From positions 1 through 18,053 of the IMG/VR virus record IMGVR_UViG_2802429227_000006: a stretch of 18,053 nucleotides of DNA; one strand, 5' to 3'. Source of the stretch: a virus. Lineage: Duplodnaviria > Heunggongvirae > Uroviricota > Caudoviricetes. The notes below the pieces were generated by a model. That model was not told the origin of the DNA. It made no database searches and was given only the letters and a program-made list of their open reading frames with translations. Each line of letters starts with the position of its first letter. Position 1 is the first letter of the stretch. A program made the position numbers and the translations under genes. Positions 1 to 15,653 of the stretch are shown in pieces.

Positions 1-459
1 GTAACCGCGATTATCTCCGCTCTGGTTATCTGCATCATCGTCTGCCTGTCATGGACTGTTAATCATTACCGTGATAACGCCATCGCCTACAAAGAGCAGC
101 GCGATAAAAAAGTCAGTGAGCTGAAGCAGGCGACTGCCACCATTACTGACATGCAGCAGCGCCAGCGTACTGCTGATGCACTCGATGCTAAATACACGAA
201 GGAGTTAGCTGATGCGAAAGCTGAAAATGATGCTCTTCGGCGCAAGCTTGATAATGGTGGCAGGGTGCTCGTCAAAGGAAAATGCCCTGTGCCATCCTCA
301 GGCGAAACCTCCATCGCCTCCGGCATGGGCAATGATGCCACCGTCGAACTCTCTCCAGTTGCTGGACGAAACGTTCTCGGTATCCGGGACGGAATTATCC
401 GCGACCAAACAGCACTAAGAACGCTTCAGGAATACATCAGGACGCAATGCCTTCGATGA
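1..459 (+). CDS. Rz: Rz i-spanin (inner-membrane spanin), 5'-partial; reading frame enters from upstream of the window
   Basis: Frame 1 translates from base 1 as [36 protein letters not shown]...[22 protein letters not shown]..., which closely matches my recollection of lambda Rz (N-terminal TM segment plus coiled-coil periplasmic domain). Stop TGA at 457-459. The ORF track reports only the internal Met at 151; the true start is upstream of the window. Confidence 0.9.
212..418 (+). CDS. Rz1: Rz1 o-spanin (outer-membrane lipoprotein), fully embedded in the +1 frame of Rz
   Basis: 68-aa [47 protein letters not shown]... has a signal peptide with lipobox (VAG-C) and a proline-rich mature region, the hallmark of lambda Rz1 (MLKLKMML...PPPPPAW from memory). 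Position inside Rz in another frame is the classic embedded-spanin architecture. Confidence 0.8.
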
Positions 460-633
460 TAGCGATAATTTTACTCATCATCCTTCACATCTGGCTCTGT
501 AGGCAGGGTGGTGAACACTTCTGGAGTGAATCCGGATTAAATATCTCATTGCTGATGCTTGATATTGAGCATCTGGCGCGCGGTAAGGGGCTGCGTTGAG
601 ATAAGAGCCAGTCATTACAAATACCAGGATTTA

Positions 634-657
634 GCCTCGCATTTGCGGGGCTTTTTT
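634..657 (+). terminator. Candidate rho-independent terminator downstream of Rz
   Basis: Stem 634-640 (GCCTCGC) pairs with 645-651 (GCGGGGC): 7 bp with one G-U wobble, loop ATTT, followed by T-tract 652-657 (TTTTTT). Folded by eye only. Confidence 0.5.
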
Positions 658-803
658 ACATCTGCAGTAAACCGCGCATCGCAGCGCGTAACAATCCCGA
701 GTCTTTCAGAAAGCTGAGCCTGAGAACTGCCGTATATGGTGGCGACCATCTCGGGGCGGCTTTTCTGTGCGAACAGGCTCATCTTTCTAAAAGGTAAGAC
801 GCT

Positions 804-1325
804 ATGAATATCGTTCCACTAAATTACAAAGGCGAACCTATCCGCTTCAATACTGATGGCTGGATTAATGCCACTGATATTGCAAAACGTTTCGGGAAGC
901 GTCTGGATCACTGGTTGTCCAACGCTGAAACTCTCGAATACGTTAGAGCTCTGGATGAGGTTTATTCAGGTGAGCCATCGAAAATTCTACATACCCGTGA
1001 TTCCGGGTATGTAAAAACAAGCAAGGCACGAAAGGACAGGGGCGGCGGAACATGGCTGCATCCAAAGTTATCAGTTGCCTTTGCAAGATGGTGCGATCCG
1101 AAATTCTCCGTATGGTGCGACCTGCACATTGATAGTCTGCTTCGCGGTGAACTGACTGAGCAGCAGAAATATGAGCAAGCATGTCGCATTCGCGATGACC
1201 GGAAATCAAAAGCCAGCAATGGGGCAAGAGAGATGGCTCGCTGGCGATGGGATAAGCCGGTTATTGAAGCAAATGTCGAGTACTGGCGCGAGCAACTGCA
1301 GTTGACTCTCGATATCGCGTGCTGA
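804..1325 (+). CDS. KilA-N domain protein (putative antirepressor-like / DNA-binding protein)
   Basis: 173-aa ORF; the N-terminal ~100 aa (LNYKGEPIRFNTDGWINATDIAKRFGKRLDHWLSNAETLEYVRAL...GTWLHPKLSVAFARWCDPKFSVWCD) fits the KilA-N domain pattern known from phage P1 KilA and many lambdoid-phage genes. Lies where P22-like phages often carry a variable Rha/antirepressor-type gene between lysis and packaging genes. RBS-like AAGG about 10 nt upstream of the ATG. Confidence 0.75.
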   Translation: MNIVPLNYKGEPIRFNTDGWINATDIAKRFGKRLDHWLSNAETLEYVRALDEVYSGEPSKILHTRDSGYVKTSKARKDRGGGTWLHPKLSVAFARWCDPKFSVWCDLHIDSLLRGELTEQQKYEQACRIRDDRKSKASNGAREMARWRWDKPVIEANVEYWREQLQLTLDIAC

Positions 1326-1682
1326 TGGCAAACGCAAAACTGCGTTATCGGAAAAATCAAAGCATTACGAGAACTGAGCAACGGCTATCCATTACAAAGC
1401 CCATCTACGGGTGGGCTTGATAATGAAACCGGAATTTATTCTTGGCAACCAGTTACGGCAGTACCACGAAGCAACCCAAACCAGTAAGTGGGGAAATAAC
1501 ACTGGCAGCCACTGAAAGATGAACCTCCAGCCTTAAGGCAAAAAAGATTCTTTGTGGTGGCGGACTGATGGAAAGACATCGGTTATTGCAGAGGCCATTC
1601 AATGAGTGGTCTCGACAATGGCTTATACCCTACACGGGATAACTTAACTGATATCCCTTTTAACGGATAAACGGAGCCAACA

Positions 1683-1925
1683 ATGGCAGAGATTATTCCC
1701 ATGACTGAAGAACAGAAATTCCAGTTAGAGATTTACAAACTTGTCATGAACCAGAACGCAGCCGCAGAAGAAGCATTTCAGTTCATTGGCACTGACGAGC
1801 TGAAGCTTGAGCTATTTAAAATTCACTTCCAGTCAGGCGGCGCTAATTCAGATATCACGACCCGCACTATCGAAGCGGTGCGTAAATCGAAGGAAGCGTT
1901 AGACCTGTTCACTACCGGAGCATAA
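1683..1925 (+). CDS. Hypothetical 80-aa protein immediately upstream of terminase small subunit
   Basis: RBS ACGGAG 5-6 nt upstream of ATG; stop TAA at 1923-1925 is 2 nt before the next start (coupled). Size and position match the small conserved ORF that precedes the small terminase gene in P22-type phages (orf80 in P22, from memory). No function inferable from sequence. Confidence 0.6.
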   Translation: MAEIIPMTEEQKFQLEIYKLVMNQNAAAEEAFQFIGTDELKLELFKIHFQSGGANSDITTRTIEAVRKSKEALDLFTTGA

Positions 1926-1927
1926 AC

Positions 1928-2368
1928 ATGGCGCGCCCAACGAAGTATCAAGAGGCGTATGCCGAACAGGCACGCAAACTGTGCTTGCTGGGCTATACAG
2001 ACGCCGAACTCGCGGACTTCTTTGAAGTTAGCGAGGCAACAATCAACAATTGGAAATTGGAATATCCGGAGTTTTTAGAGTCCATAAAAAAGGGTAAGGC
2101 CGTCGCTGATGCAGAAGTTAGTGATCGTCTTTATCAACGCGCTATGGGCTTCGTGGCTCCAGACATCGATATTCGTGTTATTGAAAACAGAATTGTCGAA
2201 ACTCCGCTTGAGAAGTATTACCCGCCTGATACAACCGCCGCCATCTTCTGGCTTAAGAACCGACAGAAGGATAAATGGCGCGACAAGGTTGATCACGAGC
2301 TAACAGGCAAAGACGGCGGCGCAATCCAGATTGAAACATCACCGATGAGCACTCTATTCGGAAAATGA
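1928..2368 (+). CDS. Terminase small subunit
   Basis: 146 aa; N-terminal HTH-like region (ARKLCLLGYTDAELADFFEVSEATINNWKLEYPEF) typical of small terminases; C-terminus ...GKDGGAIQIETSPMSTLFGK matches my recollection of the Sf6 small terminase C-terminus. Stop overlaps the large terminase start (ATGA at 2365-2368). Confidence 0.85.
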   Translation: MARPTKYQEAYAEQARKLCLLGYTDAELADFFEVSEATINNWKLEYPEFLESIKKGKAVADAEVSDRLYQRAMGFVAPDIDIRVIENRIVETPLEKYYPPDTTAAIFWLKNRQKDKWRDKVDHELTGKDGGAIQIETSPMSTLFGK

Positions 2369-3780
2369 CCTCGATTAATCCTATCTTTGAACCGTTCATT
2401 AAGGCGCATCGCTACAAAGTCGCCAAAGGCGGTCGAGGTAGCGGTAAGTCATGGGCAATTGCGAGGCTGCTTGTTGAAGCGGCGCGTCGGCAGCCTGTGC
2501 GCATCCTCTGTGCTCGTGAACTGCAAAACAGTATCAGCGATTCGGTAATCCGGTTGCTTGAAGACACCATAGAGCGGGAAGGGTATTCGGCTGAGTTTGA
2601 AATTCAGCGTTCAATGATTCGTCATCTCGGAACGAATGCTGAATTCATGTTCTACGGCATCAAAAACAACCCGACGAAGATTAAATCGCTCGAAGGTATT
2701 GATATCTGCTGGGTGGAAGAAGCGGAAGCGGTAACGAAGGAATCGTGGGATATCCTGATACCAACCATCCGCAAGCCATTTTCCGAAATATGGGTGAGCT
2801 TCAACCCGAAAAACATCCTCGACGATACCTATCAGCGATTCGTCGTAAATCCTCCCGATGACATTTGCCTGCTGACGGTGAACTACACCGACAACCCGCA
2901 CTTTCCTGAAGTCCTCCGTCTGGAGATGGAAGAGTGTAAACGCAGAAATCCGACACTGTATCGTCACATCTGGCTTGGTGAGCCAGTAAGCGCAAGTGAT
3001 ATGGCAATCATCAAACGTGAATGGCTTGAAGCTGCAACTGATGCGCACAAGCAACTCGGATGGAAAGCGAAGGGTGCGGTTGTTTCTGCGCATGACCCAT
3101 CAGACACAGGGCCAGATGCTAAAGGTTATGCATCGCGTCACGGTTCGGTAGTTAAGCGCATTGCCGAAGGTCTACTGATGGACATCAACGAGGGTGCTGA
3201 CTGGGCTACTTCGCTGGCAATTGAAGACGGCGCTGACCATTACCTGTGGGATGGTGATGGTGTTGGTGCCGGGCTACGCAGACAGACAACGGAAGCGTTC
3301 TCCGGCAAGAAAATCACCGCCACGATGTTCAAGGGCAGTGAATCGCCATTCGATGAAGATGCGCCGTATCAGGCCGGAGCATGGGCTGATGAAGTCGTAC
3401 AGGGTGACAACGTTCGCACTATTGGCGATGTGTTCCGCAATAAGCGAGCACAATTCTATTACGCGCTGGCTGACAGGCTTTATCTGACATATCGGGCGGT
3501 TGTCCACGGTGAGTATGCAGACCCCGACGACATGCTGAGTTTCGACAAAGAAGCGATAGGCGAGAAGATGCTGGAGAAGCTGTTTGCAGAACTGACGCAG
3601 ATTCAGCGCAAATTCAATAATAACGGGAAGCTGGAGCTAATGACTAAGGTCGAAATGAAGCAGAAGCTCGGTATTCCATCTCCTAACCTGGCTGATGCGT
3701 TGATGATGTGTATGCATTGCCCAGAGTCGGCTGCGCAACCCGACTATTCCAGTTACTCAATTCCTTGTGGTGTAGGTTGA
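2365..3780 (+). CDS. Terminase large subunit (ATPase + nuclease)
   Basis: 471 aa; Walker A P-loop AKGGRGSGKS at aa 20-29 (nt ~2422-2451), downstream acidic Walker B-like DICWVEEAE; size and position as in Sf6-type large terminase. Confidence 0.95.
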   Translation: MTSINPIFEPFIKAHRYKVAKGGRGSGKSWAIARLLVEAARRQPVRILCARELQNSISDSVIRLLEDTIEREGYSAEFEIQRSMIRHLGTNAEFMFYGIKNNPTKIKSLEGIDICWVEEAEAVTKESWDILIPTIRKPFSEIWVSFNPKNILDDTYQRFVVNPPDDICLLTVNYTDNPHFPEVLRLEMEECKRRNPTLYRHIWLGEPVSASDMAIIKREWLEAATDAHKQLGWKAKGAVVSAHDPSDTGPDAKGYASRHGSVVKRIAEGLLMDINEGADWATSLAIEDGADHYLWDGDGVGAGLRRQTTEAFSGKKITATMFKGSESPFDEDAPYQAGAWADEVVQGDNVRTIGDVFRNKRAQFYYALADRLYLTYRAVVHGEYADPDDMLSFDKEAIGEKMLEKLFAELTQIQRKFNNNGKLELMTKVEMKQKLGIPSPNLADALMMCMHCPESAAQPDYSSYSIPCGVG

Positions 3781-3781
3781 T

Positions 3782-5980
3782 ATGGCAGAAAAAAAGATGA
3801 CTGACTGGCATCGCAAGGTGCTGTGCAACTTTGATAATGCCTGGTCAGCAACGCAGGATATGCGTGAGCAGATTATTGAGGCTCAACGTTTCGTCCGGGT
3901 GTCCGGCGCACAGTGGGAAGGCAGCACAAACGCTGGTTACTCATTTGATGAAGGCAGGTTTGAGCATTACCCGCGCTTTGAACTGAATAAGATTGCCCGT
4001 GAATGTGATCGCATCATTGGCGAGTATCGACAGAATCGCATCAGCGTTAAATTCAGGCCGAAGGACGATAAGGCATCGGAAGCGTTAGCCGAAAAGATGA
4101 ACGGCAAATTCCGCGCTGACTATCAGGAAACATCAGGTGGTGAAGCGTGTGATAACGCATTTGATGATGCTGTAACGGGCGGGTTCGGTTGTTTCCGCAT
4201 GTGTGCCGATTACGAAGATGAAATGGATCCGAGCAACGAGCAGCGACGCATCAGCCTTCTTCCTGTTTACGACCCAGCGACATGCGTCTTCTTCGATCAG
4301 GACAGCAAGCAATATGACCGTTCTGATGCTATGTGGGCTATGGAAATGTTCTCCATGACGCCTAAAGCGTTCGAGGCTGAATACCCTGATTCCATCGCGG
4401 CAAGCCTTTCTCGTGATGACACTGGCACTCAATATGACTGGTCAACGCCAGATGCCATCTATGTTGGACGCTACTACGAAGTTCGCATAGAGAAGGTGAA
4501 GCTCACGGCGTGGCGCAATCCTGTCAGCGGAGAAACGGCAATCTATGATGAAGAGCAAATCAAAGATATTGTCGACGAGCTAACCGATGGCGCATTCGAA
4601 CTGATTGGTGAGCGAACTGTGAAGAAACGCCGCGTTTATTGCGGCCTTCTGTCTGGCGCTGAATGGCTGGAAGAACCGAAGCGTATTCCGGGTGAACATA
4701 TTCCTCTCATCCCGGTATATGGGCGTCGCTCATTTGTTGATAATCAGGAGCGAATCGAAGGCCACGCTGCAAAAGCGATGGATGCACAGCGTCTTGAGAA
4801 CCTGATGGTTTCCATGATTGCAGATAACGCTACTCAGGCTGGCGGTGATGGCATTCCTATCGTGGATGTTGATTTCATTCCCGGCCCATTAATGAATCAC
4901 TGGGCAGAGAGGAATAAGAAAAGACCTGCAGTTCTTCCTATGACCAGCAAGAAGGACAAAAACGGAACAGTCATTTCAGAAGCTCAGGTTGCTGGCTGGA
5001 CACCTCCGACACAAATGCCGCCAGCTCTTGCCGGGCTATTGCAGTACACCGGAACGGCTATTCAGCAAATTACAGGTGCGTCGCAGTTTGAGAACATGCC
5101 GAGCAACGTCGCCACCGATACCGTTGATAGCATTTTTAACAGGATGGACACGCAGTCCTATATCTACATGGACAACATGGCTAAATCCATGCGCCGCGCT
5201 GGCGTTGTGTGGCTTTCTATGGCGCGTGAGGTCTATGGCAGTGATACGCCGATGCGTATCGTTAATGAGGACGGCAGCGATGACGTGGCGCTGATGACTG
5301 GTGAAGTGGTTGACCGTCAGACAGGGCAGGTTATCGCGCTTAACGACCTTTCGCAGGGCAACTATGAAGTGACTGTCGATGTCGGTCAGTCGTTCGCTAC
5401 TCGCCGTGATGCAACTGTTAAGTCGTTACTTTCCATGCTGGCACTTATCCCACCGGGAACGCCGAAGCACGACCTTGTATCGTCGATGATTCTCGACAAT
5501 ATGGACGGCGAAGGGATGGACGACCTTAAAGAATACAACCGCAATCAGTTGCTTCTGTCTGGAGTTATCAAGCCGAGAACGCCAGAAGAGCAGCAGATGG
5601 TTGAGCAGGCGAAACAACAACAGGCCAGTCAGCCAGATCCGGCTATGGTTGCAGCGCAAGGTCAGCTTCTTGCTGGTCAGGCTGAATTGCAGAAAGCGCA
5701 GAACGAACAGGCAGCCATTCAGGTTAAAGCATTCCAGGCACAGACTGATGCTCAGGTTGCAGCGGCAAATGTTGTGAAAATCCTCGCATCTGCCGATAGC
5801 CAGCAGAGATCTGATATCCGCGAGGCTCTGAAACTGCTCGGACAGTTCCAGCAACAGCAAGGAGACAATGCCCGTGCTGATGCAGAGCTTGTCCTGAAAA
5901 GTCAGGCACAGGGCCATGCGCTGCGCATGGACATCAGCAGCATCCTGCAAAAATCAACTCAGCAACAACCACAGCAGTAA
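3782..5980 (+). CDS. Portal protein (P22 gp1-like)
   Basis: 732 aa, starts 1 nt after the terminase stop. The long C-terminal Gln/Ala-rich helical region (...PEEQQMVEQAKQQQASQPDPAMVAAQGQLLAGQAELQKAQNEQ...ARADAELVLKSQAQGHALRMDISSILQ...) matches the P22 portal C-terminal barrel as I recall it. Confidence 0.95.
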   Translation: MAEKKMTDWHRKVLCNFDNAWSATQDMREQIIEAQRFVRVSGAQWEGSTNAGYSFDEGRFEHYPRFELNKIARECDRIIGEYRQNRISVKFRPKDDKASEALAEKMNGKFRADYQETSGGEACDNAFDDAVTGGFGCFRMCADYEDEMDPSNEQRRISLLPVYDPATCVFFDQDSKQYDRSDAMWAMEMFSMTPKAFEAEYPDSIAASLSRDDTGTQYDWSTPDAIYVGRYYEVRIEKVKLTAWRNPVSGETAIYDEEQIKDIVDELTDGAFELIGERTVKKRRVYCGLLSGAEWLEEPKRIPGEHIPLIPVYGRRSFVDNQERIEGHAAKAMDAQRLENLMVSMIADNATQAGGDGIPIVDVDFIPGPLMNHWAERNKKRPAVLPMTSKKDKNGTVISEAQVAGWTPPTQMPPALAGLLQYTGTAIQQITGASQFENMPSNVATDTVDSIFNRMDTQSYIYMDNMAKSMRRAGVVWLSMAREVYGSDTPMRIVNEDGSDDVALMTGEVVDRQTGQVIALNDLSQGNYEVTVDVGQSFATRRDATVKSLLSMLALIPPGTPKHDLVSSMILDNMDGEGMDDLKEYNRNQLLLSGVIKPRTPEEQQMVEQAKQQQASQPDPAMVAAQGQLLAGQAELQKAQNEQAAIQVKAFQAQTDAQVAAANVVKILASADSQQRSDIREALKLLGQFQQQQGDNARADAELVLKSQAQGHALRMDISSILQKSTQQQPQQ

Positions 5981-6070
5981 TTAACCCATAACGTGCAATG
6001 GCTGTCTTTATGAGGCCTGGCACCCTATTGCCTTCCGATGGGCTGAACATCGAGTAAACAGGGGTAACAA

Positions 6071-6964
6071 ATGGACCAGATGGCAGAAAACACACCAGAA
6101 GTTGAAATCGAAACCGACGCGTCAGAGCAGATTCCTGATGATGTCGAACTGGCTGAAGAAGTCGAAACAGAAGATGGCAGTGAGTCCTCCGGCAATGATG
6201 AAGAGGAAGCTACTGAAACTGATGACGACGAATCAGAACAGGAATTCTACTTTGGTGAAGAAAAGCTGGATTCGCCAACCAGCGAAGATGGCGCAGAGCA
6301 TGGACTGGTAAAACACCTGCGCAAGACGATTAAAGAGAAAGACCGCGAGCTGAAAGAGCTGATGCGTCAGTCTCAGAAATCCGTCGAGCAGCAGCCGGTA
6401 ATCACTCAACCACCGCGAATGCCAAAACTGGACGATGAGGACATCGGTTTCGATGAAGAAATCTACCAGCAACGCATGGCTAAGTGGGCAGAGGATAACG
6501 GCAAGTACCAGCAACAGGAGATGGCTCGCAAGCAGAAGGAGCAGGAGCTTCAGGCTGCCTATCAAGAGCGATTATCCAAATATCAGCAACGTGTTAAGGA
6601 TCTCAAAGTTCCTGGCTATCAGGAAGCTGAGCAGGCCGTACTCGAGGAAATCCCCATCGAGACACAAAACGCGATCCTGTTTGAGTCAGAGAAGCCGGAA
6701 ATCGTTGTTCTGGCGCTTGGTCGCAACGCTGAACTGCGCAAGCAACTGGCAGAAGCTACCAACCCCGTAGCAATTGGTCGTCTGCTGGAACGTATCGAAT
6801 CTAAGGCCAGAATCATGCCAAAAGCAAAAACCACGGCAGCCACAACCCCGACAGTTAAGGGGAGCAACGGCGCAGTAATCAACAACCTCGACAAATTGAA
6901 AGCCAAGGCGCTGGAAACTGGTGACTGGACGCCGTATTTCGCCGCTAAAAAGGCAAAAAAATAA
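6071..6964 (+). CDS. Scaffolding protein (P22 gp8-like)
   Basis: 297 aa; highly acidic N-terminus, central charged coiled-coil-like region, basic C-terminal helix-turn-helix-like tail (...KALETGDWTPYFAAKKAKK); position between portal and coat. Start could alternatively be the Met at 6080. Confidence 0.85.
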   Translation: MDQMAENTPEVEIETDASEQIPDDVELAEEVETEDGSESSGNDEEEATETDDDESEQEFYFGEEKLDSPTSEDGAEHGLVKHLRKTIKEKDRELKELMRQSQKSVEQQPVITQPPRMPKLDDEDIGFDEEIYQQRMAKWAEDNGKYQQQEMARKQKEQELQAAYQERLSKYQQRVKDLKVPGYQEAEQAVLEEIPIETQNAILFESEKPEIVVLALGRNAELRKQLAEATNPVAIGRLLERIESKARIMPKAKTTAATTPTVKGSNGAVINNLDKLKAKALETGDWTPYFAAKKAKK

Positions 6965-6982
6965 CCTATCGGAGCATTAAGC

Positions 6983-8236
6983 ATGGCTAACCAATTAGCA
7001 AAAGACCTTGAAATCATGTTCGAAAACTACGTTGAAGGCTTTGATGCCGCCTGCGTAGTTTCCCGTAACGCTAAAAAATTCCGTCCCGGTGATACAGCAA
7101 TGCAGCGAGCCGGTGATGTTCTGTATCGTCCGCAGCATTACCACATGAACATTGAGGAAGGCCTCGATCTCAGCAGCAAAACGCCAACAGCACTGGTTCA
7201 GCGCCTTGTTCCTTCTGTGTTCAAGGAGCCGAAAAACATTCTGTACACTCTGGATGCGCGTGAAATGCGTGACCCTGAGCATAAAACTGAAGCTGGTCGC
7301 GCCGCAGGTATGCGCCTTGCTGCACAGATTGACTCTGACCTGATTTCCATGGTCACGCAGCGTGCTACTAACGTGATCACGATGGCTGACTCAACCACAG
7401 GTACACAGGGCCGTGATTTGTGGAACTGTGCGGCAGGTATTGATGCCACCATGACGGCGATTGGTGTACCACAGGGTATCAACCGCCGCTCTTTCTGGAA
7501 CCCCTTCAACTACAAAGACCTTGCTGGCGAGCTTGGTCACCGTGCCTATGCTCAGGGCGCAACCCTGACAGCATACGAAAAAGCGCAGATCCCTCCGGTT
7601 GCGTCCTTCGATAGCTACAAGACCGATATTTCTGGTCGTGTTCCGAAGGGTACAGCAACTTCCATTACGCTGGCAGCAGCACCTGCGCACAAAGTTGAAG
7701 CGAAAGATGCTAACGATATGCCAGTTGATAACCGACAGGGGACCATTACGGTATCTGCTGAAGGTTTGCAGGTTGGCGATGCGTTTACCATTGCAGGGGT
7801 GAATTCTGTACACCAGATCACCAAAGATACCACCGGGCAGCCGCAGGTATTCCGCGTTCTGGCAGTAAGCGGAACGACAGTAACTATCTCCCCGAAAATT
7901 CTGCCGCCTGACAACGCGGATGTCGCCAGCCGACCATATGCAAACGTTGATGCTAACGCGGCAAATAGCGCAGCAATCACCATTCTCAACAAGAATGCCG
8001 CACCGGCTAACCTGTTCTGGGCTGATGGTTCTGTTGAGCTGATGTACGGCAAACTGGCGTTCCCGACTGGTCAGGGTCCACAGGTAATGACAGCAACCAC
8101 AGAGCAGGGCGCTACGCTGATCATGTCTTACGCCTTCGACCATATCAAAGGCGTAACCACTGCGCGTTTCACCACTCTGTACGGTTGCTCTGTACTGGTT
8201 CCTGAATATACGGGCATCGTTATTGCCGGGCAGTAA
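6983..8236 (+). CDS. Major capsid (coat) protein (P22 gp5-like)
   Basis: 417 aa, RBS GGAG upstream; the segment ...AAITILNKNAAPANLFWADGSVELMYGKL... parallels a P22 coat segment as I recall it; followed by a strong terminator hairpin, as expected for the most abundant structural gene. Confidence 0.9.
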   Translation: MANQLAKDLEIMFENYVEGFDAACVVSRNAKKFRPGDTAMQRAGDVLYRPQHYHMNIEEGLDLSSKTPTALVQRLVPSVFKEPKNILYTLDAREMRDPEHKTEAGRAAGMRLAAQIDSDLISMVTQRATNVITMADSTTGTQGRDLWNCAAGIDATMTAIGVPQGINRRSFWNPFNYKDLAGELGHRAYAQGATLTAYEKAQIPPVASFDSYKTDISGRVPKGTATSITLAAAPAHKVEAKDANDMPVDNRQGTITVSAEGLQVGDAFTIAGVNSVHQITKDTTGQPQVFRVLAVSGTTVTISPKILPPDNADVASRPYANVDANAANSAAITILNKNAAPANLFWADGSVELMYGKLAFPTGQGPQVMTATTEQGATLIMSYAFDHIKGVTTARFTTLYGCSVLVPEYTGIVIAGQ

Positions 8237-8242
8237 TTTAGG

Positions 8243-8266
8243 TGGGGCTTCGGCCCCATTTTTATT
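8243..8266 (+). terminator. Rho-independent terminator after coat gene (UUCG tetraloop hairpin)
   Basis: GGGGC (8244-8248) / loop TTCG / GCCCC (8253-8257), extendable by T8243:A8258, followed by TTTTTATT. Probably a partial terminator that tunes coat versus downstream gene dosage. Confidence 0.6.
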
Positions 8267-8277
8267 GGGAGAAGACA

Positions 8278-8466
8278 ATGGCACGAACAATGCTCTATAA
8301 GCCGGGCAACATGATCACCTGTGGTCAGTTTGCTGTCGATTACATCATTGTTGATAACGAAGAAGTTAAATCTCACCTGAAAAAAGGCTGGGTAAAAACT
8401 CCTGAAGAAACCGCAACGAAGCAAAAAGTGGCTAAGGCGGAAGAAGATGGCGAAAACGAAGGGTGA
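8278..8466 (+). CDS. Hypothetical small protein (62 aa) between coat and gp4-like gene
   Basis: ATG at 8278 is in frame with the tracked ORF 8242..8466 and lies just past the terminator hairpin; RBS GGGAG 6 nt upstream. Lys/Glu-rich C-terminus. Its 3' end overlaps the next gene start by 20 nt. Sf6-type phages are reported to have a small gene here that P22 lacks (from memory). Confidence 0.5.
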   Translation: MARTMLYKPGNMITCGQFAVDYIIVDNEEVKSHLKKGWVKTPEETATKQKVAKAEEDGENEG

Positions 8467-8908
8467 TCTCGTTCTTAAGGCTTTACGAAAAGCCGGGCTG
8501 TATTCCAATGCCACGTTGACAGATGCCGACCCTCAGGCAATTGAAGATGCCATTAATGACCTCGAAGACATGATGGCAGCATGGCAGGCGAAAGGTATCG
8601 AGCTTGGATATCAGTTTGCGGATACAGAAAACGGCATCATGCCGTTACCTGACGATGATTCAGGTATCCCTGCATGGGCAAATGATGGCGTCGCTTTGAA
8701 ACTCGCTGTGCAAGTGTGCATGGATAACGTCATTCAGCCGTCAGACGCTCTCCTTACCGCTGCTGACAGTGCATATCAGACAATCTGTATCGCTTTAACC
8801 AAAATACCACCACTTGAGCGGCGAAATGACATGCCTCGCGGTAGTGGTAACAAAAGCGCGTTTACGTGGAATCGGTTTTACATCGAGAAAGATGATCCGA
8901 GTACGTGA
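8447..8908 (+). CDS. Head completion / tail adaptor protein (P22 gp4-like)
   Basis: 153 aa; N-terminus MAKTKGDLVLKALRKAGLYSNATLTDADPQAIEDAINDLEDMMAAW resembles the P22 gp4 N-terminus as I recall it (...KTKGDLVRAALRKLGV...ATLTDVEPQ...); conserved ...MPRGSGN... near the C-terminus. Confidence 0.85.
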   Translation: MAKTKGDLVLKALRKAGLYSNATLTDADPQAIEDAINDLEDMMAAWQAKGIELGYQFADTENGIMPLPDDDSGIPAWANDGVALKLAVQVCMDNVIQPSDALLTAADSAYQTICIALTKIPPLERRNDMPRGSGNKSAFTWNRFYIEKDDPST

Positions 8909-8917
8909 GGTGAATAA

Positions 8918-10336
8918 ATGCCGATTCAGCAACTACCGCTCATGAAAGGTGTCGGCAAAGACTTTCGAAACGCCGACTATATCGACTATCTGCCAGTGAA
9001 TATGCTGGCTACACCCAAAGAAATCCTGAACAGCAGCGGATATCTTCGCTCATTCCCGGGCATTGCCAAACGCTCTAATGTGAACGGCGTATCGCGCGGC
9101 GTCGAGTACAACATGGCGCAGAGTGCTGTTTATCGCGTGTGTGGTGGCAAGCTGTACAAAGGAGAAAATGCAGTCGGTGATGTTGCCGGAAGTGGTCGCG
9201 TATCAATGGCGCATGGCCGGACATCACAGGCGGTAGGCGTTAATGGTCAACTTATCGAGTATCGCTATGATGGCACGGTTAAAACCGTCTCAAACTGGCC
9301 TACAGACAGCGGATTCACGCAGTATGAGTTAGGTTCAGTCCGCGACATTACACGCTTACGTGGGCGTTATGCGTGGTCAAAAGACGGCACGGATTCATGG
9401 TTTATCACTGACCTTGAAGACGAATCGCATCCTGACCGTTACAGTGCACAATATCGTGCCGAGTCTCAGCCTGACGGAATCATCGGCATCGGCACATGGC
9501 GAGACTTCATCGTCTGCTTTGGTTCATCGACGATTGAATATTTTTCCCTCACTGGTGCAACCACAGTTGGTGCCGCGTTGTATGTCGCACAGCCATCGCT
9601 GATGGTGCAGAAAGGCATTGCCGGAACTTACTGCAAAACGCCGTTTGCTGATTCCTATGCGTTCATCAGCAATCCGGCAACAGGTGCTCCGTCTGTATAC
9701 ATCATCGGCTCCGGTCAGGTATCACCAATCGCCAGCGCGAGCATTGAGAAAATTCTCCGCTCCTACACTGCTGATGAACTGGCTGATGGTGTGATGGAGT
9801 CTCTGCGATTTGATGCGCATGAGTTGCTGATTATCCATCTTCCGCGTCATGTTCTTGTTTACGACGCATCTTCAAGCGCCAATGGTCCGCAATGGTGTGT
9901 GCTGAAAACAGGCCTGTATGACGATGTGTACCGCGCTATCGACTTCATTTACGAAGGCAATCAGATAACGTGCGGCGATAAGCTGGAATCGGTGACCGGG
10001 AAATTGCAATTCGATATCAGCAGCCAGTACGACAAGCAACAGGAACATCTGCTGTTTACTCCGTTGTTCAAAGCGGATAACGCCAGAGTGTTCGACCTTG
10101 AGGTTGAATCGTCAACTGGCGTTGCGCAGTACGCCGACAGCCTGTTCATCTCTGCAACCACTGACGGCATAAATTACGGTCGTGAGCAGATGATTGAGCA
10201 GAATGAACCGTTCGTTTATGACAAACGTGTTTTGTGGAAGCGAGTAGGGCGCATCAGGAAAAATGTCGGCTTCAAATTGCGCGTTATAACGAAGTCACCT
10301 GTCACTCTGTCTGGTTGCCAGATAAGGATTGAGTAA
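8918..10336 (+). CDS. Tail hub protein (P22 gp10-like)
   Basis: 472 aa (P22 gp10 is 472 aa by memory); position between gp4-like and tail needle; RBS GAGGTG upstream. Assigned by synteny and size, not by recalled sequence. Confidence 0.8.
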
Positions 10337-11037
10337 TGGCTGATTCGAATCTCAATGAGCCGGTAACAATTCAGGCTACACGACTCGATACATCAATCCT
10401 TCCACGCAATATATTCAGCCAGTCTTACCTGCTGTATGTCATTAATCAGGGGGCTGATGTCGGCGCAATTGCCGGGAAGGCAAATCAGGCTGGTCAGGGC
10501 GCTTACGATGCTCAGGTGAAAAACGATGAACAGGATGTCGAACTGGCTGACCACGATGCAAGAATCACCGCAAACACAAAAGCGATAAATATCCTTGAGG
10601 TCAGGTTGACAACTGCCGAAGGGAAGATAGCCGTACTGCGTAGCGATGTTGATTACTTGCTGGATGAGGTTATCGATATTCAGGGGCATCTGGTCACTGT
10701 TGACCAAAGACTGGATGACGTAGAAAACGATGTCTCTGGCATTAAGAGTGATTACGTATCGAAAACCGTAACAGAATCGCAGTCTCTTGCGTCACCGCTG
10801 GATGTAAAAACATCATATTCAGTTGATGGAATTCAGGTTGTTGGAGCAAGAAATACCGGATGGACTGCAGCCACAGGTACACCTCTTCTTGGCTCATTCA
10901 ACGCTAACCAGTCATACACGGTCGGCACTACGTACACACAATCCGAAGTCGCGGCTCTCGCTACAGGTTTGCAGCAGGCGCGGCAGCGTATTCTGGCGCT
11001 TGAAACAGCACTTAGATTACATGGGCTGATTGACTGA
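10336..11037 (+). CDS. Tail needle / plug protein (P22 gp26-like)
   Basis: 233 aa; N-terminus [77 protein letters not shown] and C-terminus ...[33 protein letters not shown] closely match P22 gp26 as I recall it; central heptad-repeat trimeric coiled coil. Confidence 0.9.
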
Positions 11038-11492
11038 TGATTACATTCAAACCAACGCGAAACATCGACCTGATAGAAGCAGTCGGAAATCACCCTGACA
11101 TTATCGCCGGGAGCAATAACGGTGATGAATACGGCTACAAACCTGATTGCCGTTACTTTGAAGTTAACGTGCACGGGCAGTTTGGCGGCATTGTTTACTA
11201 TCAGGAGATTCAGCCGCTTACATTCGATTGCCACGCCATGTACCTGCCAGAGATTCGCGGCTTCAGCAAGGAAATAGGGCTGGCGTTCTGGCGATACATT
11301 CTGACCAACACCACCGTTCAGTGCGTCACATCATTTGCTGCACGCAAATTCCGCCACGGGCAGATGTACTGCGCAATGATTGGCCTTAAGCGTGTAGGAA
11401 CCATCAAGAAATACTTCAAAGGCGTGGATGACGTGACGTTTTACAGCGCCACACGCGAAGAACTAATCGACTTCCTGAATCACGGGAGATAG
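11037..11492 (+). CDS. gp14-like protein (conserved ORF between tail needle and ejection proteins)
   Basis: 151 aa, start overlaps the gp26-like stop (TGATG). Same position as P22 gene 14. Cys/His-containing sequence with no motif I can confidently name. Confidence 0.6.
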   Translation: MITFKPTRNIDLIEAVGNHPDIIAGSNNGDEYGYKPDCRYFEVNVHGQFGGIVYYQEIQPLTFDCHAMYLPEIRGFSKEIGLAFWRYILTNTTVQCVTSFAARKFRHGQMYCAMIGLKRVGTIKKYFKGVDDVTFYSATREELIDFLNHGR

Positions 11493-11494
11493 CC

Positions 11495-12187
11495 ATGTTA
11501 TATGCATTTACGCTGGGCAGAAAACTGCGCGGCGAGGAACCTTATTGCCCTGAAAAAGGCGGGAAAGGTGGCAGTTCTGATAAAAGCGCAAAGTATGCAG
11601 CAGAAGCTCAGAAGTATGCCGCAGACCTGCAAAATCAGCAGTGGCAGACGATCATGAAAAACCTTGTTCCGTTCACGCCTCTTGCGGAGCAGTATGTTAA
11701 CCAGCTTCAGAACCTTTCCAGTTTAGAAGGTCAGGGGCAGGCACTTAATCAGTATTACAACTCTCAGCAGTATAAAGACCTTGCAGGTCAGGCTCGTTAC
11801 CAGAGTCTTGCTGCTGCGGAGGCTACGGGAGGACTTGGTTCGACAGCCGCAAGCAATCAACTGGCTACGATCGCGCCGACTCTCGGTCAGTCTTGGTTAT
11901 CAAACCAGATGAGCAATTACAACAATCTGGCAAACGTTGGGCTTGGTGCTCTGCAAGGTCAGGCAAACGCTGGGCAGACGTACGCCAACAACATGAGCAG
12001 CATTGCACAGCAAAGCGCAGCTCTTGCCGCTGCTAATGCCAATAAACCATCAAGTCTTCAGACTGCAATTAGTGGCGGAACGTCTGGTGCTATTGCCGGT
12101 GCAGGTCTTGCCAGCCTTTTGGGAACATCAACACCTTGGGGCGCTGGCATTGGTGCTGGTATCGGATTGCTTGGTTCGTTGTTTTAA
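11495..12187 (+). CDS. Ejection (internal virion) protein, P22 gp7-like
   Basis: 230 aa; Gln/Ala/Asn-rich, low complexity, with a Gly-rich hydrophobic C-terminal tail (GGTSGAIAGAGLASLLGTSTPWGAGIGAGIGLLGSLF) suggestive of membrane insertion. Assigned by synteny and size. Confidence 0.75.
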   Translation: MLYAFTLGRKLRGEEPYCPEKGGKGGSSDKSAKYAAEAQKYAADLQNQQWQTIMKNLVPFTPLAEQYVNQLQNLSSLEGQGQALNQYYNSQQYKDLAGQARYQSLAAAEATGGLGSTAASNQLATIAPTLGQSWLSNQMSNYNNLANVGLGALQGQANAGQTYANNMSSIAQQSAALAAANANKPSSLQTAISGGTSGAIAGAGLASLLGTSTPWGAGIGAGIGLLGSLF

Positions 12188-12196
12188 GGGGTAATC

Positions 12197-13492
12197 ATGG
12201 CTACTTGGCAAGGATCAAATGGCGGATTGTTGGCTGGTATCGGCGGCGTCAACTCAAACGCTCCGAGCGTAAATGACATCGGCAATACGCTTCAGCTTAT
12301 CAGGCAGAACAATGATATTGAGCGTTCAGGCGCTAACAATGTTGGGCTGACTGCTTTGCAAGGCCTTTCAGGTATTGCGGGGGTGTTTCAGCAGGAAAAG
12401 CAGGCTCAGCGGCAGAAAGAATTTCAGCAGGCATACGCTAATGCTTATGCGTCTGGTGATCGCGGTGCTTTGCGTCAGTTGGCTACTCAATATCCAGACC
12501 AGATTGAATCCGTTCGTAAAGGCATGGGATTCATTGATGAAGACCAGCGCAATTCTATCGGCACCTTAGCGGCTGGCGCTCGTCTTGCGGCATCGTCTCC
12601 AGAAGCAATGCAATCATGGCTGCAAAACAACGCCAAGGAACTGACTCGCGTCGGCGTTGACCCTAATAACGTTGCTCAGATGTATCAGCAGAATCCTTCA
12701 GGATTTGGTGAGTTTGTTGATCACCTTGGAATGGCTGCTCTTGGTCCGATTGATTACTTCAATGTTCAGGACAAGATGGCTGGTCGTGAGATTGACCGAG
12801 GCAGGCTGGCAGAGACAATCCGCAGCAATCAGGCTGGAGAAGCACTAACAGCTCGAGGTCAGGACATCCAGATACGTGGACAGAACATCAGCGCACAGAA
12901 TGCTGCTCTTTCCCGAGAAATACAAAGAGCAGAATTACAAGAAAAGGCTCTGGACAGACAGATAGCCAGAGAAAGCAATCAGTTAAAGCTTGAAGAGCTA
13001 AAGCAGAAACAGGCAGATGTTCGGCAAAAGGCTGACATAGCACGCGCTGACAGGCAGGCCGCCGCTCAGGGTGCAGTTGATACGTTCAGCACCGCGCTTG
13101 ATTCTCTCAACGAGATAGAGCAAAGCCCCGGCCTTTCAAAAGCAGTAGGAATTCGCTCAGCGTTTCCGACAGTTCCTGGTTCTGATGCGGCTAACTTTGA
13201 AGCAAGGCTCGACACCTTTAAAGCTCAAACATTCCTTCCTATGGTGCAGTCCCTGAAGGGTATGGGCGCTCTTTCAGATGCTGAGGGTAAAAAATTATCC
13301 GATGCGGTTGGTGCCCTAAGTCCCAAAATGAGTGAAAAGGCTTTTCGTGACTCTATCGGAAAGATTAGAAATCAGCTTGAAAGCAAGTTGAGCACTGTTA
13401 AAAAACAGTTTGATTATCAGGAGCCGGTGCAGAATATGCCAGGGCAACAATCTACTACTGGCAGTAACTTTTCTTCACTATGGGGTGATTAA
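12197..13492 (+). CDS. Ejection (internal virion) protein, P22 gp20-like
   Basis: 431 aa; RBS AAGGGG upstream; position and low-complexity Ala/Gln-rich composition with coiled-coil-like charged segment. Assigned by synteny. Confidence 0.75.
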   Translation: MATWQGSNGGLLAGIGGVNSNAPSVNDIGNTLQLIRQNNDIERSGANNVGLTALQGLSGIAGVFQQEKQAQRQKEFQQAYANAYASGDRGALRQLATQYPDQIESVRKGMGFIDEDQRNSIGTLAAGARLAASSPEAMQSWLQNNAKELTRVGVDPNNVAQMYQQNPSGFGEFVDHLGMAALGPIDYFNVQDKMAGREIDRGRLAETIRSNQAGEALTARGQDIQIRGQNISAQNAALSREIQRAELQEKALDRQIARESNQLKLEELKQKQADVRQKADIARADRQAAAQGAVDTFSTALDSLNEIEQSPGLSKAVGIRSAFPTVPGSDAANFEARLDTFKAQTFLPMVQSLKGMGALSDAEGKKLSDAVGALSPKMSEKAFRDSIGKIRNQLESKLSTVKKQFDYQEPVQNMPGQQSTTGSNFSSLWGD

Positions 13493-15489
13493 TGGCTAAA
13501 GCATGGAAAGATGTTATCGCCTCTCCACAGTATCAGGCGTTAGCACCAGAACAAAAAGCGCAGGCTCAGGAGCAATACTTCAATGAAGTCGTTGCCCCGC
13601 AAGCCGGAGAAAATGCAGAGCAGGCCAAGCAAGCTTTCTATGCTGCCTATCCATTGCCATCTGCGCAGCAAGTGGAGACACAGCAACCAGTAGCACAGCA
13701 ACAACCACAGCAAAGTGGATTTATGTCTGATCTTGGCGAAGCAGTAAAAGAGACTGGTCGCGGACTGGTGCAGGCTGGCGTGAACGTGGCAAACATACCC
13801 GCATCAGTTGCCGATGCTGTAACAAGCGCGGCGGCTTGGGCTGGCGGTAAACTCGGCATTGGCGATGGTACATATCAACCAGCGCCACGAGTAACAACGC
13901 AGGGATTAGAGCAGGACTTTGGCCTTCAGCAAGGCGCGCTGACTCCACAAACGACAGAGGGAAGGGTATTTGCTGAAGCATTGCCTTACCTCACTCCTGC
14001 TGGCGTTGAGAGAGCGGCGGCACAGGCACCAACACTAGCTGGTAGAATCGCTCAGGGTGCAACTCGCCTTCTCGCTGAAAACGCAGTCGGGTCACTTGCT
14101 GCAAATAGTGCGAAAGATGATTCGGAAGCCCTCGCCACCGATTTAGGTGTTGGCGTTCTGGCAGGCGGCGCTATTAACGCTGCTGGACGTGGATTAGGTG
14201 CTGCTTATCGTGGCGTTAGTGGTGCTATTGCGCCAGAAGCGCAGCAGGCTATCAGATTTGCAGAGCGTGAAGGAGTTCCTCTGCACACCACAGACCTGTT
14301 ACAACCCACTTCCCGCGTCGGAAAAATGGCGCAGACTACAGCAGAAAATATCCCTCTGGCTGGCACAAGCGGAATGAGAGCAACGCAACAGGAAGCGAGA
14401 AGCCAGTTGGTGCAGAGATTTGCCGATAAATTCGGTGAGTATGATCCAGCGGTTGTTATTGACAGCCTTAAAGCGAAAACATCAGGAATTCGTCGTGCCG
14501 CAGGGAACCGTATTGAGCAAATTCAGAATGCAATGGCAGGAGTCAACATTCAACCTGCACGAGCAATTCAGCAGATTGATACTGAGATATCTAACCTGCA
14601 GAAGCTTGGTAAGGTCGCTGATAACGAGACGATTTCAAAACTTCAGTCATATCGTGATGAGCTTGTTCGCAATGCTGGTCCTGATGGTCCGGTCAATCTG
14701 GATTTGAAGCAATTAAGCGATCTGCGCAGCCAGTTCAGAATGGACGTGAAGGGTGAGCGACCAGTGTTACCAAACCGTTCCGATGCCGCCATTCAGCGCG
14801 TTTACAAGGCAATGACTGACGATATCAATGGTGCCATTGGTCAGAATCTTGGCAACGATACTCTCCGTAAATATCAGCAGGCCAATGCCGTCTACGCTGA
14901 CGAAGCGGAGAAACTAAAGAATACCAGGCTGAAGAATGTTCTCATGAAAGGCGACCTGACGCCGGAAGTTGTCAACAACATGCTATTCAGCAAGAACAAA
15001 TCGGAAATTAAGACTCTGTATAACTCAGTTGGTCGTGTTGGCAGGGCGCAAATGCGCAATGGCATCATTGGAAAGGCGATGGAGAAATCTGGCGGATCCC
15101 CTGACCAGTTCCTTCGGCAGCTTAACATCCTGCAAAACCAGACTGGCATCACATTTAAGGGGCAGGACGCTGCTTATCTGAAAGGATTAAAAAACTACCT
15201 GCAATCCACGCAGCAGGCTGTAAAAGCGGCAGTAACAACACCCACAGGGCAGCAAACTATCCCGTTCATAATTGGGTATGGGACGGCAATGAACCCGGCG
15301 ACAACTGGCGCAGCAGTAAGCTACGGACTTCTTACTCGCGCCTATGAGAGCGAGCCATTCAGAAATGCAATGCTCCGAATGGCAAACACCCCACGCGGAT
15401 CAACAGCGTTTGAGAAAACCATGCAGCAGGCACAAAAGGCAATTAACGCCATGACGCAGGGTGCGAAGTCTGATTCGTTGTCAGAATAG
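13492..15489 (+). CDS. Ejection (internal virion) protein, P22 gp16-like
   Basis: 665 aa; start overlaps the preceding stop (TAATG); last and largest of the three ejection-protein genes before the tailspike. Assigned by synteny and composition. Confidence 0.75.
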   Translation: MAKAWKDVIASPQYQALAPEQKAQAQEQYFNEVVAPQAGENAEQAKQAFYAAYPLPSAQQVETQQPVAQQQPQQSGFMSDLGEAVKETGRGLVQAGVNVANIPASVADAVTSAAAWAGGKLGIGDGTYQPAPRVTTQGLEQDFGLQQGALTPQTTEGRVFAEALPYLTPAGVERAAAQAPTLAGRIAQGATRLLAENAVGSLAANSAKDDSEALATDLGVGVLAGGAINAAGRGLGAAYRGVSGAIAPEAQQAIRFAEREGVPLHTTDLLQPTSRVGKMAQTTAENIPLAGTSGMRATQQEARSQLVQRFADKFGEYDPAVVIDSLKAKTSGIRRAAGNRIEQIQNAMAGVNIQPARAIQQIDTEISNLQKLGKVADNETISKLQSYRDELVRNAGPDGPVNLDLKQLSDLRSQFRMDVKGERPVLPNRSDAAIQRVYKAMTDDINGAIGQNLGNDTLRKYQQANAVYADEAEKLKNTRLKNVLMKGDLTPEVVNNMLFSKNKSEIKTLYNSVGRVGRAQMRNGIIGKAMEKSGGSPDQFLRQLNILQNQTGITFKGQDAAYLKGLKNYLQSTQQAVKAAVTTPTGQQTIPFIIGYGTAMNPATTGAAVSYGLLTRAYESEPFRNAMLRMANTPRGSTAFEKTMQQAQKAINAMTQGAKSDSLSE

Positions 15490-15653
15490 CTTTGCAAACA
15501 CCAGAAATGTGCAAAAACCAAATATATAGAACGCAATATTCAACAGATCTTTTTGCATAGACTCATCTCATAGTTAACAAATCATAACTTACATTAATGC
15601 AATGCCGGGCAAGTTGCATCTTGTTCCGCATTGCTACGTCTGGAGAAAATTAA
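15490..15653 (+). promoter_or_regulatory. Intergenic region upstream of tailspike with TTGCA-type motifs and an inverted repeat; candidate regulatory or RNA-structure region
   Basis: 164-bp AT-rich gap, the largest in the structural operon. Palindrome TTTGCAAA at 15491-15498; TTGCAT at 15553-15558 and 15614-15619; inverted repeat GCAATGC (15599-15605) / GCATTGC (15628-15634); RBS GGAG at 15642-15645. No convincing sigma70 -35/-10 pair found by eye. Confidence 0.3.

Follow-up and report, generated by a model that had tools for sequence, protein, structure and literature searches.

A portable leader, predicted to fold over the ribosome-binding site, precedes exchangeable cargo genes in the late region of enterobacterial phages

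Control of translation by folding of the ribosome-binding site (RBS) is known from several systems, namely the maturation gene of MS2, in which folding is delayed, the repZ leader of IncI-alpha and IncB, in which a pseudoknot is activating, and I-TevI of T4, in which a hairpin holds the Shine–Dalgarno (SD) sequence on read-through transcripts. The subject of this article is a leader that appears to belong to the same kind and lies at 633–803, directly upstream of a gene for a KilA-N domain protein (804–1325), in an 18,053-nucleotide (nt) stretch of tailed-phage DNA (IMG/VR record IMGVR_UViG_2802429227_000006, positions 1 to 18,053). This whole stretch is called the window, all coordinates refer to it unless another record is named, and the interval under study comprises 460–1682. 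As in the systems mentioned, the SD sequence is predicted to lie in a stable helix with which long-range or pseudoknot-type pairings could compete, and the products may be harmful or needed in small amounts, since HNH and T5orf172 nucleases are among the genes, or cargos, found behind the leader. However, the leader has no sequence or Rfam relationship to any of these systems. A leader peptide is present in repY/repZ, whereas none is conserved in the phage leader, and I-TevI has an internal late promoter, of which there is no evidence in the phage leader. Moreover, the architecture, in which the loop of a first hairpin (P1) pairs with a bulge and the 5' flank pairs with an apical loop, is its own.

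A further relative in function may be IsrK of Gifsy-1, whose published account states that one of two isoforms derives from only a portion of isrK transcripts (PMC4825925). The likeness lies in a prophage leader with a terminator before regulatory genes. The read-through transcripts of IsrK are reportedly inactive in translation until they are remodelled. However, the isoform through which IsrK acts in trans is short and has a promoter of its own, whereas neither a promoter nor a short RNA of this kind is seen in the phage leader, and its Rfam model does not match that leader. On the protein side, proteins combining KilA-N and ORF11CD3 domains are said to form part of the Bro network as outlined by Iyer, Koonin and Aravind in 2002. 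D3 Orf11, HK620 HkbK and Emek orf173 resemble the window protein in two-domain architecture and length, and the latter two occupy the same genomic slot, although HkbK has its N-domain in a different sequence cluster and scores 50.5 bits for ORF11CD3, against 16.5 bits for the window protein, a value below the 25-bit Pfam cutoff. The rha loci of phi80 and P22 likewise stand after Rz with the same terminator-plus-leader module, and part of the Rha proteins have an ORF11CD3-type C-terminus as in the window protein, whereas their N-terminal domain is Phage_pRha and not KilA-N. Rha reportedly inhibits phage growth in mutants of the integration host factor, IHF (Henthorn and Friedman, 1995), which favours the view that cargos in this slot require tight control. 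The BstA protein of BTP1 has a KilA-N(-like) domain at residues 32–147 followed by a second, C-terminal functional domain (PMC8585504). The window protein, with 173 amino acids in total and an ORF11CD3 C-terminus, is not of the BstA type. The bstA gene is moreover reportedly located elsewhere in its prophage.

The main finding concerns the leader, as the protein family and the mosaicism of the slot are already known. The block 633–803 is a conserved portable control module that is independent of the identity of the cargo. BLAST divides 460–803 into two independent blocks, one with a small open reading frame (ORF) and the other comprising 633–803, which shows 77–100% identity in phi80, Stx, Klebsiella and Enterobacter phages and is found also in an Actinobacillus-labelled phage. 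In an alignment of seven carriers of this block, similarity begins at the terminator and ends at the ATG. Leaders that are 81–99% identical occur in pairs of phages whose first 150 coding nt sit at the unrelated baseline of 57–63%, and the same KilA-N cargo is found behind two leader types, the leaders of the window and of Emek being 67% identical. Since the similarity between phages breaks off at the start codon, the same leader is followed by at least ten unrelated types of cargo. The original prediction had correctly given the gaps upstream and downstream of the KilA-N ORF as 344 and 357 base pairs (bp), but it had described them as long non-coding flanks of a loose layout, whereas few parts of the region are as well conserved as 633–803 and 1449–1682.

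A search of IMG/VR with a degenerate pattern located the leader at 120 loci or more, and the leader set, composed of IMG/VR loci, phage records and the window, holds at least 131 matches. A looser pattern recovered it from 45 genomes of Enterobacterales, with one additional match due to chance, and leader type A alone is present in 761 of 5,426 complete Escherichia coli genomes (14%), in which RefSeq annotates no feature under it. P22, phi80, HK620, HK022 and 933W carry the leader, and lambda and Sf6, which were also checked, lack it. In at least 91 of 156 loci it is located 3' of an Rz-type gene. A search of Rfam 15 with the leaders of the window, phi80, P22, Emek, HK620 and epsilon34 returned nothing at E ≤ 1 over the structured part; the sub-threshold matches were chance ones to RcsR1 (19 bits against 60, at the terminator) and STnc470 (18 against 80, at the terminator and P1 of Emek). 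No description of the leader was found in the literature searched, an earlier mention in older papers on P22, phi80 or HK620 being possible. As to its kind, it is a predicted SD-sequestering 5' leader with pseudoknots, and as a family and an architecture it appears to be new. The elements of the leader and the gene that follows it in the window are:

633–657, + strand: predicted intrinsic terminator, with stem 633–640 / 645–652, loop 641–644 and T-run 653–657
673–688, + strand: hairpin P1, with stem 673–677 / 684–688 and loop ATCGCA 678–683
679–683, + strand: 5' strand of the long-range pairing PK1, TCGCA of the P1 loop, pairing with TGCGA 768–772
696–701, + strand: segment a, CCCGAG, complementary to segment g, CTCGGG 750–755
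702–722, + strand: 5' strand of the long helix P2/P3, holding the anti-SD sequence TCTTT 702–706
723–766, + strand: apical domain, with P3b 723–726 / 763–766 and P4 729–733 / 756–760
736–740 / 745–749, + strand: P5, with GGCG loop 741–744, next to segment g (750–755)
767–773, + strand: 3' bulge j, GTGCGAA, between P3b and P3, of which 768–772 pairs with the P1 loop (PK1)
774–794, + strand: 3' strand of the long helix P2/P3, holding the SD sequence AAAGG 790–794
804–1325, + strand: cargo gene for a 173-residue KilA-N + ORF11CD3-type protein of the D3 Orf11 / Emek orf173 family

The first element reads AGCCTCGC-ATTT-GCGGGGCT at 633–652, an 8-bp stem with 6 GC pairs followed by TTTTT. Judged from its letters, this GC-rich hairpin with a T-run has the form of an intrinsic terminator, and its counterparts in Emek, epsilon34 and phi80 are annotated as terminators. 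A terminator scan of the window alone did not rise above chance, with 3 matches against 2.6 expected. Across the leader family, a terminator-like hairpin with a T-run, built from many different stem sequences, stands 5' of 95 of the 107 distinct leader copies, a placement far beyond chance. Two hairpins had been noticed beforehand, a terminator-like one at 634–657 and CGCGC-ATCGCA-GCGCG at about 671–686; both are real, the former extending over 633–657 and the latter lying 2 nt further on, at 673–688, and they are the first two elements, terminator and P1, of the leader module. The expression signals that the gene had been supposed to have of its own did not turn out to be a promoter, as consensus scanning found neither a sigma-70-like site on the + strand of the window, phi80 and HK620 leaders nor an IHF consensus within the leader; the signals are instead the terminator upstream and the folded leader that pairs with the RBS. 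A leader peptide is not conserved after the terminator either, an ATG being present in only 48 of 106 copies, with neither peptides nor stops conserved.

The leader measures about 135 nt and contains five helices and two long-range pairings. In the window, its minimum free energy is −40.2 kcal/mol (z = −2.9). RNAalifold on MAFFT alignments mis-registers the 3' strand of the P22 type by 2 nt, so anchor-based scripts were used together with a covariance model built from 20 type-A leaders and the structure proposed here. This model found 111 sites in 97 sources, aligned every other leader type in structural register, scored 93 bits (E 1.6e-17) on the window at 662–809, and exposed second, far more divergent leader copies (types C to H) in the same loci. 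In the model alignment, 95.9% of cells are paired, compared with 81.2% in shuffles, none of 500 reaching the observed value, and 30 of the 36 nested pairs show double changes, whereas slid registers pair in 35–45% of cells. P1 is paired in 99.3% of cells, with all four of its model pairs doubly changed. P3b, P4 and P5 each have compensatory changes. Among the divergent types, C, D, E and H have P5 changed or lack it. According to the anchor-based scripts, the long helix is paired at 20 of 22 positions in the window and at 22 of 22 in L006 (a Stx phage), and it has 18 contiguous pairs in the P22 type, with many double substitutions separating the leader types. A small hairpin within segment b was considered as a general element and discarded, as it is not conserved across types, and the apical TGGCGA loop is no universal motif, being lost in types C, D, E and H.

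The two long-range pairings, PK1 and a:g, lie outside the model that built the alignment. PK1 is paired in 94.4% of cells, a level reached by none of 500 shuffles, and all six of its pairs are doubly changed among nine sequence variants; slid registers mostly give 9–29%, one of them (−2) giving 73%. In the model alignment, the register of a:g differs by 1 nt from type to type, and it was therefore counted by a separate script: 99 of 103 distinct copies, with 21 sequence variants, have six or more contiguous Watson–Crick pairs in an equivalent position. Those that fall short are copies truncated at the 5' end, one spurious reverse-strand match and one recombinant (L143, 4378–4524), in which a type-A 5' half is joined to a type-A' 3' half and a:g is cut from 6 to 5 bp, so that nature itself provides an experiment on this helix. 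Since G:U pairs are abundant and covariance scores fall from 92–184 bits on the forward strand to 11–26 bits on the reverse, it is the sense strand that folds. A minus-strand ORF that runs through terminator and leader (615–782, 55 amino acids, with an HTH-looking stretch SQAQLSERLGI) was rejected as a gene because it has no Pfam or PHROG match and because its frame is interrupted by indels of 1 and 3 nt from one leader type to another; its presence is a side effect of the conserved RNA element.

As regards the SD sequence, the CC:GG pairs that would sequester it (helix 3) are paired in 91% of cells, and the variants of this helix include CCTTT:AAAGG and the covarying CCTATA:TATAGG. In the window, the corresponding pairs are G793–C703 and G794–U702. 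Deleting the 5' half of the leader raises the predicted accessibility of the SD sequence from 0.24 to 0.43. P2 and a:g are comparable in energy, at about −11 kcal/mol in context for the former and about −9.4 kcal/mol for the a:g duplex, and the 5' half of A-type leaders, taken alone, folds with a:g closed.

With moderate confidence, the interval 460–1682 can be read from its sequence as a leader–cargo cassette of a Q-dependent late operon, in which the terminator and an RBS-masking leader would form a double lock on a potentially toxic cargo. The terminator would stop any polymerase not modified by Q, and the cargo would then be transcribed only as part of the late transcript. Since no promoter or IHF site was detected and the terminator stands at the 5' end of the leader, transcription of the cargo should be left to Q-modified polymerase from pR'. 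The folded leader would subsequently mask the RBS, P2 pairing UC or CC with the GG of the SD sequence, and translation would require that P2 be opened or removed. Three routes can be envisaged. Firstly, a:g could compete with P2, giving a two-state or delayed-folding switch with translation on nascent RNA only, as in the maturation gene of MS2. Secondly, RNase III could cleave the helix of at least 20 bp. Thirdly, a compact fold in which all pairings coexist might simply lock the site. As both the leader and the right flank of the slot (1449–1682) are conserved, they would also serve as homologous joints for the exchange of cargo. Many of the cargos, namely KilA- and Rha-type regulators and free-standing nucleases, can be expected to be harmful if mis-expressed, which would be in keeping with containment as the role of the leader; by analogy with KilA of P1 and Rha of phi80 and P22, the 173-residue protein of the window may itself be harmful to the cell or to the phage when its synthesis is mistimed.

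Several points weigh against this cassette with a double lock. The covariation alignment was fitted to the model, which inflates pairing, and it represents few lineages, about 47 clusters at 90% identity. In the P22/Emek types, the helix ends 2–6 nt before the SD sequence and predicted pairing and occlusion are partial, and the predicted occlusion is moderate in general, with a family mean P(unpaired) of 0.24 against 0.20–0.55 in neighbouring genes. Few of the conserved nucleotides are unpaired, nearly all conserved positions being in pairs. The geometry is compatible both with competition between a:g and P2 and with their coexistence, and a fold-back at bulge j could allow both. Moreover, the read-through by Q-modified polymerase, the translational masking and the toxicity of the KilA-N protein are all steps that we infer. 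Finally, a promoter flanked by IHF sites was reportedly proposed 5' of phi80 rha by Henthorn and Friedman (1995); the consensus scanning described above found neither element, but if that promoter with its IHF sites is real, the cargo has transcription of its own.

If the leader does gate translation, it would provide a handle on how phages keep harmful Rha, antirepressor-like and free-standing nuclease genes within an essential late operon, the annotated start codons of rha would be corrected, and the joints used in cargo exchange would be defined. In addition, the leader would offer a compact natural part for tight, late-only expression, and the "ant" gene of 933W, located between R and Rz by the Shiga toxin and lysis region, would be placed under the same control element. 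It may be added, more tentatively, that the leader could be a portable two-state RNA "safety lock", in which a rod-like hairpin masks the SD sequence and a fold pseudoknotted by PK1 and a:g exposes it, timing or metering the translation of potentially toxic cargo and acting also as a recombination joint. Such a lock would represent a novel class of cis-regulatory RNA within much-studied phages (P22, phi80, HK022 and 933W), covering cargos that comprise Bro-network regulators, homing-type nucleases and membrane proteins, and might explain why unrelated slot proteins act as conditionally inhibitory genes.

Among the alternatives, processing by RNase III survives best and is a possible account, though a doubtful one on its own: the helix of at least 20 bp would be cut, separating the lysis mRNA from the downstream mRNA and freeing the RBS, and the remaining structure would serve to position the cut. 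The RNase III sites of the lambda N-leader, of lambda sib and of the T7 intergenic regions are likewise irregular hairpins and about as large, and translation can be switched on by such cleavage. With the pairing counts given above for the window, L006 and the P22 type, the long helix would present about two helical turns of double-stranded RNA, and the gain in predicted SD accessibility after removal of the 5' half points in the same direction. However, the covariation of P1, PK1 and a:g is left unexplained by cleavage, and the helix has conserved mismatches. Processing of this sort would be compatible with the cassette reading.

The reading of the original prediction, that of a classical moron, takes the KilA-N gene as an autonomous insert that is driven by a promoter of its own within the upstream gap, does not rely on the late operon for its expression, e.g., in the lysogen, and is insulated by the hairpins. 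This we consider improbable. The polymorphism in presence and in cargo that it expects is real, the cargo being swapped in epsilon34, P22, HK620 and Sf101 and deleted in one IMG/VR locus (L089, see below), a terminator does isolate the gene from upstream transcription, and the promoter reportedly proposed 5' of phi80 rha would point the same way. Nevertheless, the promoter and IHF consensus scans were negative as stated, the terminator is located 5' of the gene, and none with a T-run follows it 3', where the nearest hairpin (1397–1418) lacks one. The compensatory changes and the asymmetry in G:U pairs indicate selection on RNA pairing, which is not expected from a promoter.

A riboswitch sensing a ligand or protein, or a self-cleaving ribozyme, is quite improbable. 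In this view, the helices and long-range pairings would make up a binding or catalytic fold. The complexity of the leader, with its two pseudoknot-type pairings, is on a par with that of known riboswitches and ribozymes, the two possibly alternative pairings are similar in energy, and the leader stands directly before the start codon. However, a ligand pocket is disfavoured, because base pairs take up almost all conserved nucleotides and some leader types lack the TGGCGA apical loop; moreover, no Rfam family matches, and the cargo genes have no common metabolic theme hinting at a ligand. Most improbable is a DNA-level recombination linker or "boundary sequence" without RNA function: cargo and leader type do assort independently, the recombinant L143 fuses type A to A', the Sf6 record annotates "boundary sequences" in the region, and the right flank 1449–1682 is equally conserved, but a linker needs identity and not complementarity, whereas the leader types diverge to near baseline and yet keep 36 nested pairs and two long-range helices by double substitutions, the pairing works on one strand only, and the block stops exactly at the SD sequence and ATG.

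The slot itself had been predicted to be a variable one that often holds Rha or antirepressor-type genes, and comparison of the junction among phages bears this out, with Rha, KilA-N, T5orf172, HNH, a transposon or nothing in it. Thus, the upstream gap of epsilon34, 98% identical across all 344 nt, is followed by a T5orf172/GIY-YIG-type gene, P22, phi80 and Sf101 have Rha between equivalent flanks, HK620 has a different KilA-N gene together with hkbL, and further phages have HNH endonucleases or a transposon. In L089 (IMG/VR UViG 2698536618_000024, 3775–3919), the slot is without cargo: the leader is intact to the 3' bulge and then joined to the equivalent of about window position 1429 onward, the deletion, which begins inside the leader, having taken the KilA-N gene and the SD strand. 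Among the leader matches listed, 116 complete cargo ORFs were classified. The types comprise Phage_pRha, two KilA-N types, KilA-N+P63C, P22_AR_N+ORF11CD3, Bro-N and ANT, as well as HNH_3(+AP2), T5orf172/MUG113, a TerB-like protein, a membrane protein and unknowns. Most of the cargos are DNA-binding or nuclease accessory genes of lambda-like and P22-like phages. Since an ORF11CD3-type C-terminal segment is common to the Rha-type, HkbK-type and window-type N-domains, domain shuffling takes place within the cassette.

Other arrangements of the leader deserve mention. In HK022 it lies after Rz and before a 242-residue KilA-N+P63C ORF. In the Stx2a phage L006 and in 933W (L181), a type-C leader precedes "ant" (P22_AR_N+ORF11CD3) between the endolysin gene R and Rz, at 648–796 of L006 and 6712–6860 of L181, and L006 has a second leader (2014–2163) after Rz, in front of Rha. 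Tandem leader–cargo cassettes are also seen in L012, L022, L039, L056, L064, L090, L134, L153, L162 and L177. The Actinobacillus phage vB_Apl-pPE4 (L008) has two leader copies, 99–248 and 2015–2162, one of them in front of a "tellurite resistance" gene of the TerB-like kind; that its leader and HkbK-type start nearly match those of HK620, a phage of E. coli, is unexpected in view of the Pasteurellaceae label of its host. The GenBank GTG starts of rha in phi80 (L005, 2132), P22 (L009, 896) and CobraSix (L007, 2120) are located 36 nt 5' of the conserved SD sequence and ATG, their frames passing through the 3' strand of the leader helix. These annotated starts are probably over-extended.

The cargo of the window was rightly recognised as a KilA-N gene. 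Pfam KilA-N (PF04383) matches it with 85.5 bits against a cutoff of 23.8 (2.8e-24), residues 7–114 corresponding to positions 4–106 of the 107-position profile. Examination of the C-terminal part, which had been suggested as a check, points over the last 60 or so residues to an ORF11CD3-type helical hairpin common to HkbK of HK620 and some Rha proteins. For the window protein alone, the sub-cutoff ORF11CD3 (PF10549) match covers residues 122–169 (E 0.01); PF10549 is precomputed for a 99%-identical cluster representative and for most homologues, and by BLASTP the C-terminal 60 residues group with HkbK. The 509 homologues, typically of 165–175 residues and most with PF04383+PF10549 precomputed, belong to enterobacterial and Pseudomonas (pro)phages, the 173-residue protein is full length for its family, and Emek labels its counterpart orf173, "similar to Orf11 of phage D3". 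An AlphaFold2 model (mean pLDDT 87) has an alpha/beta N-domain and two long antiparallel C-terminal helices, 116–137 and 141–168, which in the model could plausibly form an oligomerisation hairpin. The best neighbours of the model in the PDB are weak, namely the APSES domains of Mbp1 and PCG2 (E 0.14–0.2, TM score 0.24–0.38), a faint resemblance of the N-domain that is expected of KilA-N. A sequence search of the PDB gave no match, and PADLOC gave a single weak partial match, to PDC-S22 over 30 residues. The protein is thus an ordinary member of the Bro/KilA/Rha domain-shuffling network, and the gene in itself adds nothing new, being one more KilA-N/ORF11CD3 gene in a known mosaic slot.

The first 6 kb of the window look like a late region of the P22-like (Lederbergvirus-type) kind. 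The nearest GenBank phages share mosaic pieces of 94–98% identity, and no record spans 80% of the first 2.4 kb. An Rz-type spanin ORF does end at 459 as predicted (Pfam Phage_lysis, 4.8e-22), and around the cassette the following features can be listed:

212–418: Rz1, nested in Rz (Pfam Rz1, 1.6e-20)
447–599, + strand: 50-codon ORF with a hydrophobic N-terminus, its start overlapping the Rz stop, of the Sf6 gene 65 / epsilon34 gp67 family
1683–1925: DUF2560 gene, homologue of P22 orf80 (1.1e-43)
1928–2368: small terminase subunit
2365–3780: large terminase
3782–5980: portal

The KilA-N gene had been taken for the sole gene of the interval, a view that fails because the ORF 447–599, which extends into it, matches phrog_11822 end to end (4.5e-36, residues 1–50 of 50) and is unbroken in 42 phage records, at 88–96% amino-acid identity. 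An ORF of this type is found at 23 of 156 leader-bearing loci, and it may encode a small membrane protein whose translation is coupled to that of Rz. Nor do the packaging genes begin at 1683, as had been stated, since the DUF2560 gene located there is not a known packaging gene and the small terminase gene begins at 1928. Neither tRNAs nor Rfam families were found in the two gaps, 460–803 and 1326–1682.

The downstream gap consists of two parts. The first, 1326–1448, travels with this KilA-N gene, and the second is the right-hand joint of the slot; two features stand out:

1397–1418, + strand: hairpin AAGCCCA...TGGGCTT of 7–9 bp, 72 nt after the KilA-N stop, without a T-run
1449–1682, + strand: conserved non-coding block 5' of the DUF2560 gene, forming the right-hand flank of the slot

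The hairpin is kept in HK620, Emek and ABTNLsp. The possibility that the gap represents a decayed C-terminal extension of the KilA-N gene, prompted by the 273 positions of phrog_129, was rejected because the homologues typically have 165–175 residues and because 1449–1682 is conserved behind unrelated cargos. This block is 92–99% identical behind any cargo and contains no conserved ORF; a 24-codon ORF at 1568–1642, resembling "orf25" of P22, was discarded, as P22 and epsilon34 have a stop inside it. Insertions within the block occur in Emek (orf53) and in P22 (about 560 nt). Its predicted RNA fold is better than that of shuffles (z = −3.2), with too little sequence variation for covariation, and the block might act as another leader or as a joint for recombination. 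At 1355–1367, 30 nt past the KilA-N stop, lies a perfect IHF core consensus, AATCAAAGCATTA, at chance level for the whole window.

Leader copies identical to the types of E. coli and Salmonella phages were also observed on contigs of metagenome-assembled genomes labelled Nanosynbacter, Bacillota, Collinsella and Cellvibrionaceae (L141, L157, L161 and L140), where they most likely reflect binning contamination by enterobacterial phage DNA.

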